DNA of 64,000 nucleotides from Escherichia coli (lineage in GTDB: Bacteria > Pseudomonadota > Gammaproteobacteria > Enterobacterales > Enterobacteriaceae). The stretch is taken from assembly GCF_030013205.1 (NCBI RefSeq), contig NZ_CP122648.1; one strand, written 5' to 3'. The translations under genes were made by a program, and so were the position numbers. Within the stretch, counting starts at the first letter, position 1. Each line of letters starts with the position of its first letter. Shown one piece after another: positions 53,114-53,452 of the stretch. The notes under the pieces are model-generated. The model saw only the letters and a program-made list of their open reading frames with translations. It was not told the DNA's origin and made no database searches.

Positions 53114-53452
53114 CTATTTCCCTGAATTTACGACGAAACTGTTCGAGCGGGCTGAAGCACTCATGCTCATAGCCTTCGCGGAGGTAGATAACCCGTTGTG
53201 TTTCCGGCTCCCAACGAATGACTCTGACGGGTACTCCGTAGTGATCTTTGAACCAGCGGTTAACTTGTCGCAAAGGACTGTCTCCTTCTGCCGGTTGAAA
53301 TCACCCACAGCCCACTCTGCAAAGCTGTGGGTTACAATTTCCCTGTCACCTGGTACATTCACTGCATAGCAATATTCCACCTTCGCTTTTCCACCCGGTA
53401 CAGGAAGCGCAATCAGTTGCGAGCGACGGTAGTGTGTTGTTAAACTGTTCAT
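53114..53452 (-). CDS. phage protein of unknown function, probably frameshifted
   Basis: N-terminal 55 aa look protein-like ([42 protein letters not shown]…); the C-terminal third is low-complexity (…[15 protein letters not shown]), suggesting a frame change. Confidence 0.4.

Follow-up and report, generated by a model that had tools for sequence, protein, structure and literature searches.

An overlapping ymfM/DUF4222 gene pair and a recurrent deletion breakpoint in the replication initiator gene of an SfIV/e14-type prophage remnant of Escherichia coli

Results

The window analysed here, a stretch of 64,000 nucleotides of the Escherichia coli contig NZ_CP122648.1 (assembly GCF_030013205.1), carries a small remnant of a prophage, flanked by ompT (48809-49762) and tRNA-Arg(TCT) (58672-58748), at the attachment locus of DLP12 (argU-ompT). 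Read from ompT to argU, the gene order is alpha/beta hydrolase, 'tfa, class I methyltransferase, a further 'tfa, the initiator gene fragment O', DUF4222, ymfL, ymfT, ymfK, several small genes, yfdP, yfdQ and 'int (Table 1). Over region 51500-55100, 12 complete genomes of porcine ETEC / O139:H1-type E. coli match at 100% identity and another five at 99.9%; NZ_CP062203 (PGAP), whose copy of this region is 100% identical, served as the annotated reference for the locus.

Several neighbouring features were also observed. The hydrolase gene (49886-51433, +) encodes 515 aa with a signal-peptide-like N-terminus, and its place between tfaX and ompT is held by appY in K-12. The methyltransferase gene (51979-52647, +) lies between direct tfa fragments (51617-51829 and 52702-52870) and encodes an intact class I SAM-dependent enzyme of 222 aa, the K-12 counterpart of which, ybcY, is annotated as a pseudogene. 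The candidate sRNA family IS009 of Rfam matches 52745-52944 (-) with 133.7 bits; the alignment is good only inside the tfaD fragment, and its 5' third, located on O', has low posterior probability. Towards argU, a hypothetical gene at 55890-56200 (+; 16391-16701 of L001) is marked as frameshifted by PGAP, and long ORFs overlap on both strands at 55230-56577.

Table 1. Features of the prophage remnant in window coordinates.
Feature	Position	Strand	Basis
'tfaD, C-terminal third of tail fibre assembly gene, DLP12 right end	52702..52870	-	Pfam Caudo_TAP E = 4.5e-20; PGAP 'missing N-terminus'
O/tfaD deletion junction, 4-nt patch GGTA in both parents	52870..52873	-	crossover between T 52871 and A 52870
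O', first 78 codons of SfIV/e14-type replication initiator (HTH_36), pseudogene	52871..53104	-	PGAP 'missing C-terminus'
DUF4222 gene, 59 aa, TTG start	53094..53273	-	Pfam PF13973; PGAP WP_001250269.1
ymfM, 112 codons, intact	53114..53452	-	K-12 b1148 'cell division inhibitor YmfM'; SfIV gp40; phrog_1170
ymfM pre-overlap part, codons 1-59, conserved N-terminal domain	53276..53452	-	coding signature; pLDDT 77-86
Shine-Dalgarno AAGGAG, 8 nt before DUF4222 TTG	53282..53287	-	read from sequence
ymfL (CII/CP76-like regulator)	53449..54018	-	Pfam Phage_CP76 E = 1.3e-13; NCBIfam phage_reg_YmfL E = 2.7e-50
ymfT (Cro-like), first gene of rightward early operon	54050..54250	-	PGAP; weak YdaS/HTH_3 matches
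ymfK, LexA/CI-like S24 repressor, intact, 224 aa	54341..55015	+	Pfam Peptidase_S24 E = 1.5e-26; PGAP
yfdR'::'int fusion ORF, 362 aa, integrase without its N-terminus	57568..58656	+	YfdR-like start, then integrase; PGAP 'missing N-terminus'

O and int of the remnant are both cut. The ORF at 52862-53104 (-) comprises 80 codons, of which 78 match SfIV O before two foreign codons and a stop. The original prediction of an O-like HTH gene that stops at the tfa junction after 80 codons could be confirmed as a true truncation, since intact O homologues are 313 aa long and PGAP records a missing C-terminus; SfIV gp41 is complete with 313 aa and the origin repeats, while the window O is the same for the first 78 codons and then stops. 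O' is collinear with SfIV O and K-12 oweE, with few scattered substitutions, up to ...CGCCAGGGT, and it retains the N-terminal winged-helix DNA-binding domain (Pfam HTH_36, E = 3.2e-12), matching phrog_11896 over 1-79/225 and phrog_391 over 1-78/298. The C-terminal domain is absent, as only 78/313 codons are left, and so are the origin repeats, which in SfIV (TCTGACCCGTCAAAA...) start about 75-80 nt past the breakpoint. On the other side of the junction, window 52873-51693 is 97.9% identical to tfaD-ybcY-tfaX of K-12 DLP12, with the K-12 tfaD parent reading TGCAGG[TA]GCCAGTGAGC and the window GCCAGGG[TA]GCCAGTGAGC.

For int, the fusion described earlier is present: translation starts like the 5'-deoxynucleotidase YfdR and continues as an integrase without its own N-terminus, which marks a second internal deletion that took out the remainder of yfdR, the intervening genes and the 5' part of int. 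The repressor gene ymfK and the ymfT-ymfL-ymfM-DUF4222 operon look intact; a simple scan returned no sigma-70-like promoter for this operon.

For ymfM, 336 of 339 nt are identical to K-12 ymfM and 334 of 339 to SfIV gp40, with start and stop common to all three, and 110 of the 112 residues of the protein agree with K-12 YmfM. Its product matches phrog_1170 over the entire length (1-112/112, E = 8.5e-70) and is a full-length member of that family. By tblastn against phage genomes, the complete 112-aa ORF was found in 15 of them at 96-98% identity, including the functional SfIV and SfII, and a protein search returned homologues of 102-117 aa at 46-65% identity. The gene order is likewise that of the YmfM family, downstream of the CII-like ymfL, to which ymfM is coupled by an ATG overlapping the ymfL stop as ATGA, and upstream of the O-like initiator, whose start follows 9 nt after the ymfM stop. 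Pfam and NCBIfam hold no family for the ymfM product, and in a 100% identical genome PGAP leaves ymfM out and calls DUF4222 instead.

In the predicted structure, residues 1-58 of YmfM form a conserved, foldable domain (Table 1) and residues 69-112 are disordered (pLDDT 33-38), placing the boundary at about 53275. The earlier description of the ORF as protein-like at first and low-complexity at its end therefore holds; the frameshift that the original prediction put near 53300 does not, since the homologues show the 112-aa form to be the native full-length protein. The N-terminal domain matches phrog_20047 over 1-63/63, is conserved down to 40% identity and also occurs alone: Citrobacter phage phiNP has it as a 65-aa ORF followed by rha, with no DUF4222, and Entomohabitans, which has lost most of DUF4222 by deletion, has it as an ORF of 78 aa.

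The disordered tail coincides with the DUF4222 gene, which is read in the +1 frame across the last 53 codons of ymfM (codons 60-112) and runs 11 nt into the start of O. Its product matches PF13973 essentially end to end (profile 3-52/53, E = 8.6e-19, score 67.3 bits where the gathering cut-off is 27) and phrog_1343 over 1-59/59, and with 59 aa it has the typical size (59-70 aa) of this family of small proteins of enterobacterial prophages; standalone DUF4222 proteins of 59-70 aa are found at NCBI across Enterobacterales. No residue of the DUF4222 protein differs between the window, K-12 and SfIV (100% identity), and it is predicted to fold as a small beta-barrel (mean pLDDT 84). An ATG, GTG or TTG start is located at the same alignment position in nine other lineages (Klebsiella, Pantoea, metagenomes), and a GGAG-type motif precedes the start by 5-8 nt in most of the ten lineages, being weaker in AH07, L190 and L196. 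The DUF4222 gene possesses independent translation signals, with initiation predicted from AAGGAG/TTG. In the functional temperate phages SfIV (gp40) and SfII, the 112-aa ORF likewise encloses the DUF4222 frame; the overlap is ancestral in this phage family and, being present in functional phages, no lesion.

Two kinds of variants were additionally observed. In P0030, P0052, P0059, P0065 (14 member sequences) and P0090, a 1-nt shift or small deletion fuses the YmfM N-terminal domain to DUF4222; these may be real mutants or assembly errors. In L195, P0077, P0089 and P0074, an unrelated N-terminus takes the place of the YmfM domain, and the ORF still continues across DUF4222, again in the +1 frame, as far as the usual stop.

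Selection on the two frames was assessed from pairwise lineage comparisons, in which amino-acid identity was set against differences at four-fold degenerate sites. For the DUF4222 frame, amino-acid identity was 0.64-0.86 while 33-80% of four-fold sites differed over nine pairs (50-80% in seven), as in the flanking genes. The N-terminal 58 codons of ymfM displayed an ordinary coding signature as well, with amino-acid identity of 0.41-0.95 overall and of 0.41-0.76 between lineages, and four-fold differences of 8-58% that followed the divergence of the pair (37-58% in divergent, 8-13% in close pairs). The ymfM tail, with amino-acid identity of 0.38-0.65 and four-fold differences of 0-33%, shows the reverse of a coding signature, because its third positions are the first positions of DUF4222. 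In agreement with this, all ymfM substitutions between the window, K-12 and SfIV are located in the tail, where each alters YmfM and none alters DUF4222. Purifying selection in both frames, as dual coding would leave it, was not found in these comparisons: selection acts on the ymfM N-terminal domain and on DUF4222, not on the sequence of the tail.

The ymfM frame is nevertheless stop-free through DUF4222 in 10 of 10 lineages. When each DUF4222 protein was recoded with random synonymous codons according to local usage, or its own codons were permuted, the chance of an open frame per lineage was 0.07-0.22 (usage model) or 0.03-0.8 (the more conservative permutation), which combines to about 2e-7 and 1.5e-4, respectively, assuming that about seven lineages with saturated synonymous sites are independent. 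The tail seems to be maintained as an open frame but not in its sequence, which would fit a need to keep ribosomes engaged on the mRNA as far as the start of O. One could argue instead that the 112-aa ymfM is an annotation artefact, the real genes being DUF4222 and at most a short upstream peptide, with a frame that is open by chance and has no function; the omission by PGAP, the missing Pfam and NCBIfam family, the unconstrained and disordered tail and the single-lineage chance of 0.07-0.22, which is not tiny, all speak for this. However, the N-terminal domain evolves as a coding region down to 40% identity and stands alone as an ORF where DUF4222 is absent, the ymfM ATG overlaps the ymfL stop, none of the ten lineages interrupts the frame (with the low combined chance given above), and a ribosome that has initiated on ymfM inevitably translates the tail as well. 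We consider an artefact unlikely and read ymfM as a gene whose tail seems to be held open.

The breakpoint in O proved to be shared by other prophages. In K-12, oweE/ymfN of e14 keeps codons 1-78 and ends at the very breakpoint nucleotide of the window, where it is joined to a terminase gene, and yfdO of CPS-53 begins at the same TA and keeps O from codon 79 to the end. The partner of the breakpoint is terminase for oweE/ymfN, the region upstream of yfdP for yfdO and tfaD for the window, and since these differ, the deletions are independent events. IMG/VR and metagenomes were scanned for the flanking 18-20-mers followed by non-intact sequence, and the window, K-12 e14 and L320, the latter from an unselected sample anchored in O, were taken into the junction set. 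In total, the T|A step of GGGTAACC is common, to the nucleotide, to about 20 different deletion junctions, 15 of them rightward (window, e14, L167, L171-L178, L231, L232, L237, L320) and 5 leftward (CPS-53/L181/L184, L182, L183, L185, L186). On an SfIV-type genome, the partners map to terminase (1159), head closure (6274), the neck region (7181), baseplate (14094), tail fibre (16997), the nin region (32405-34479) and tfaD, and on the other side to 25331, 27241, 29486 and 29543.

An anchor placed 40 nt upstream as a control gave no junctions, the position next to the hotspot gave two SNP variants only, and the unselected sample of 117 loci held 116 intact copies and one hotspot junction (L320). 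From the metagenome scan, which returned mostly chance 18-mer matches, 4 of 39 hits were real. Of 2005 records of complete E. coli genomes that carry this O allele, 1579 read through the site intact, and 12 of 13 sampled partial matches end at it, most of these being K-12 derivatives. The three controls support the sharpness of what we describe as a nucleotide-precise, bidirectional deletion hotspot. A different decay was seen in a Salmonella contig (L198), in which ymfM breaks off near codon 55 and directly abuts DUF968/HNH and antiterminator genes; the different left endpoint indicates that not all decay in this prophage family uses the O hotspot.

Lambdoid prophages being highly mosaic, and many truncated copies in complete genomes being K-12 derivatives, the shared breakpoint might instead reflect common descent, with one ancient O' truncation whose flanks were later reshuffled by homologous recombination. 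Yet the DNA adjoining the breakpoint differs in the roughly 20 junctions and comes from many genome positions, homologous exchange cannot alter the base next to a junction, and both left and right halves of O survive. Neither do the junction-adjacent sequences share a stretch beside the TA of the kind that nested deletions would leave. Common descent is thus very unlikely, and repeated deletion from one site is the preferred explanation.

At the joins, the two parents share patches of identity of 2-6 nt, with T at -1 in all and the following A in all but two. Both flanks are known for 14 of the partner sites; in these, G was found at -2 in 11 (p = 1.5e-4) and C at +2 in 11 (p = 1.8e-4), giving the palindromic partner consensus G-R-TA-Y-C, which also holds on the retained partner flank (13/18, p = 1.8e-4), where the p-values are to be taken as indicative only, the motif having been defined after seeing the data. 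The best partners read CCGGA[TA]ACCGG (L320) and GGC[TA]ACCG (L183).

Discussion

We read the locus, with high confidence, as what decay has left of the early region of a temperate phage of SfIV/e14 type in the DLP12 site, in which ymfM is native while O and int are cut. One deletion ran from O codon 78/79 into the last third of tfaD and took the C-terminal domain of O, the origin repeats and every late gene; another joined yfdR to a 5'-truncated int, leaving the repressor gene ymfK and the ymfT-ymfL-ymfM-DUF4222 operon as survivors. With no origin repeats, no C-terminal O domain, no late genes and a truncated int, the remnant is predicted to be replication- and excision-defective, as was proposed originally, and judged by its gene content it should not form particles either, so that "defective prophage" is a sound description. 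That a frameshift near 53300 destroyed a longer or different protein during this decay is the least probable of the alternatives, bordering on the untenable: the switch to a low-complexity tail is real and the fused variants P0030, P0052, P0059 and P0065 demonstrate that a 1-nt shift can join the frames, but functional phages and K-12 carry the 112-aa form without fusion, the two frames are unfused in all diverged lineages, DUF4222 has its own conserved Shine-Dalgarno and start codon, the N-terminal domain exists without DUF4222 in phiNP and Entomohabitans, and the fusions, being confined to rare near-identical E. coli sequences from few assemblies, look like recent mutations or sequencing errors. 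A programmed frameshift that would fuse the N-terminal domain to DUF4222 is not favoured either, given the separate Shine-Dalgarno and start of DUF4222 and the occurrence of the domain alone.

For the intact gene pair, we propose a model in which ribosomes would pass the approximately 58-codon domain of ymfM and continue through the 53 codons lying over DUF4222, while DUF4222 would be translated separately, in the +1 register, from its own Shine-Dalgarno and TTG. The ymfM tail would then consist of disordered residues dictated by the codons of DUF4222; it is of low complexity because its codons are the out-of-frame shadow of that gene. The lambda genes Rz and Rz1 are an overprinted, embedded phage gene pair in which both frames are functional and constrained. 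The ymfM/DUF4222 arrangement is similar in that the same DNA yields two products in different frames and a separate ribosome-binding site serves the inner gene, but differs in that only the inner frame is constrained at the amino-acid level, the outer one seemingly just being kept open.

This overlap bears on the division inhibitor SfiC. The K-12 e14 gene ymfM (b1148), the proposed SfiC, has the same length, start and stop as the window gene and is 99% identical, with ymfK, ymfT, ymfL and a truncated O as common neighbours; e14 is located at icd with O' joined to the terminase gene aaaE, while the window remnant is located at argU/DLP12 with O' joined to tfaD. Expression of the cloned ymfM ORF leads to loss of FtsZ rings and filamentation, and deletion of ymfM reduces SOS filamentation (bioRxiv 10.1101/2020.11.19.390815). 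In the same work, sfiC was assigned to ymfM by means of "the open reading frame" in pBAD24 and the ymfM deletion (bioRxiv 10.1101/2020.11.19.390815), and a library clone from earlier work contained ymfL', ymfM and ymfN' (PMC3614548); neither of the two reports mentions the nested DUF4222 frame. The pBAD24 ymfM construct also includes most of DUF4222, of which a bare ymfM ORF omits only the final 20 nt, and Z-ring inhibition is known from plasmid expression of the K-12 ORF only. Since the constructs and deletions of the sfiC experiments hit both genes, the phenotype is not assigned to one frame, and the inhibitor credited to YmfM may be the overlapping DUF4222, or both products may be needed. 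By homology to the published e14 system, the surviving operon of the window probably includes the SOS-inducible division-inhibition (SfiC) determinant; its expression, SOS control and division-inhibition phenotype in this strain are likewise inferred. Our literature search on DUF4222, yfdO/oweE/ymfN and e14 returned nothing on the overlap or the hotspot and no function for DUF4222.

With regard to the hotspot, several explanations were considered. A conserved functional site at the TA does not agree with other O lineages, which read GGC AAC; as the TA is not conserved, the site is better regarded as an accidental good substrate than as a functional element. Insertion of a mobile element at the breakpoint can be dismissed as well, since not a single contig carries both halves of O. 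A hairpin-stall model could build on an imperfect 28-nt hairpin that ends 3 nt before the TA, but the folding energy of the region is ordinary (z = -0.21) and the model predicts different endpoints for the two directions. For a gyrase-type 4-bp stagger centred on the TA, the observed joins are hybrids that would need a crossover inside the TA, whereas the 4-bp register T|AACC|G fits every junction, both worked out by hand; neither 4-bp register matches the gyrase consensus well. A site for Pin/Gin/Hin serine recombinases, built of half-sites ...AAACC and GGTTT... around a 2-bp core, would have the opposite polarity to the hotspot, GGG-TA-ACC, in which the left flank is G and the right flank C. 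The right flank resembles the terminal repeats of the IS3 family weakly (6/8), as in SfIV's own IS (TGAATCGCCACAG). IS30, with its 2-bp stagger and palindromic hot spots, would leave products that retain a copy of the IS at the junction (PMC9333248), and the junctions observed here contain none. If a broken end of O had simply annealed to its partner, the preference seen on the retained partner flank would be left unexplained.

Deletion hotspots with one fixed end are established for lambda Int-promoted deletions from att to secondary sites, for the nick sites of rolling-circle origins and for terB fork-arrest sites. The O breakpoint is comparable to these in that one endpoint is fixed to the nucleotide, the other is variable and short identity is found at the join. 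In contrast to them, the O deletions run both ways from the same TA, and the partners fit G-R-TA-Y-C on the flank that is kept. To our knowledge, no recombinase site, nick site or terminator has been placed at this position in O.

We put forward two suggestions tentatively, as a pair that we would sooner expect to fail than to hold: that the T|A of GGGTAACC may be a preferred substrate of a site-specific breakage-and-rejoining activity, and that SfiC may be DUF4222 or require both products. Under the first, a recombinase, transposase or topoisomerase with a 2-bp core or short stagger would join the site to degenerate G-R-TA-Y-C sites in either direction.

Conclusions

The gene ymfM is known and intact here, and a truncated O is routine in cryptic prophages, so these two observations carry little weight in themselves. 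More is attached to the annotation conflict, in which the K-12 reference names ymfM and NCBI PGAP names DUF4222 on the same DNA, and to the sfiC phenotype, which is 35 years old and for which ymfM and DUF4222 could be distinguished by frame-specific mutations. About 20 independent deletions with one endpoint and non-random partners point to a specific mechanism in the decay of E. coli prophages, and decay at this hotspot touches two of the nine cryptic prophages of K-12. If a site-specific activity indeed acts at this TA, it would be a main route to crypticity of a very common prophage family and the source of e14 (ymfN), CPS-53 (yfdO) and the remnant in the window.
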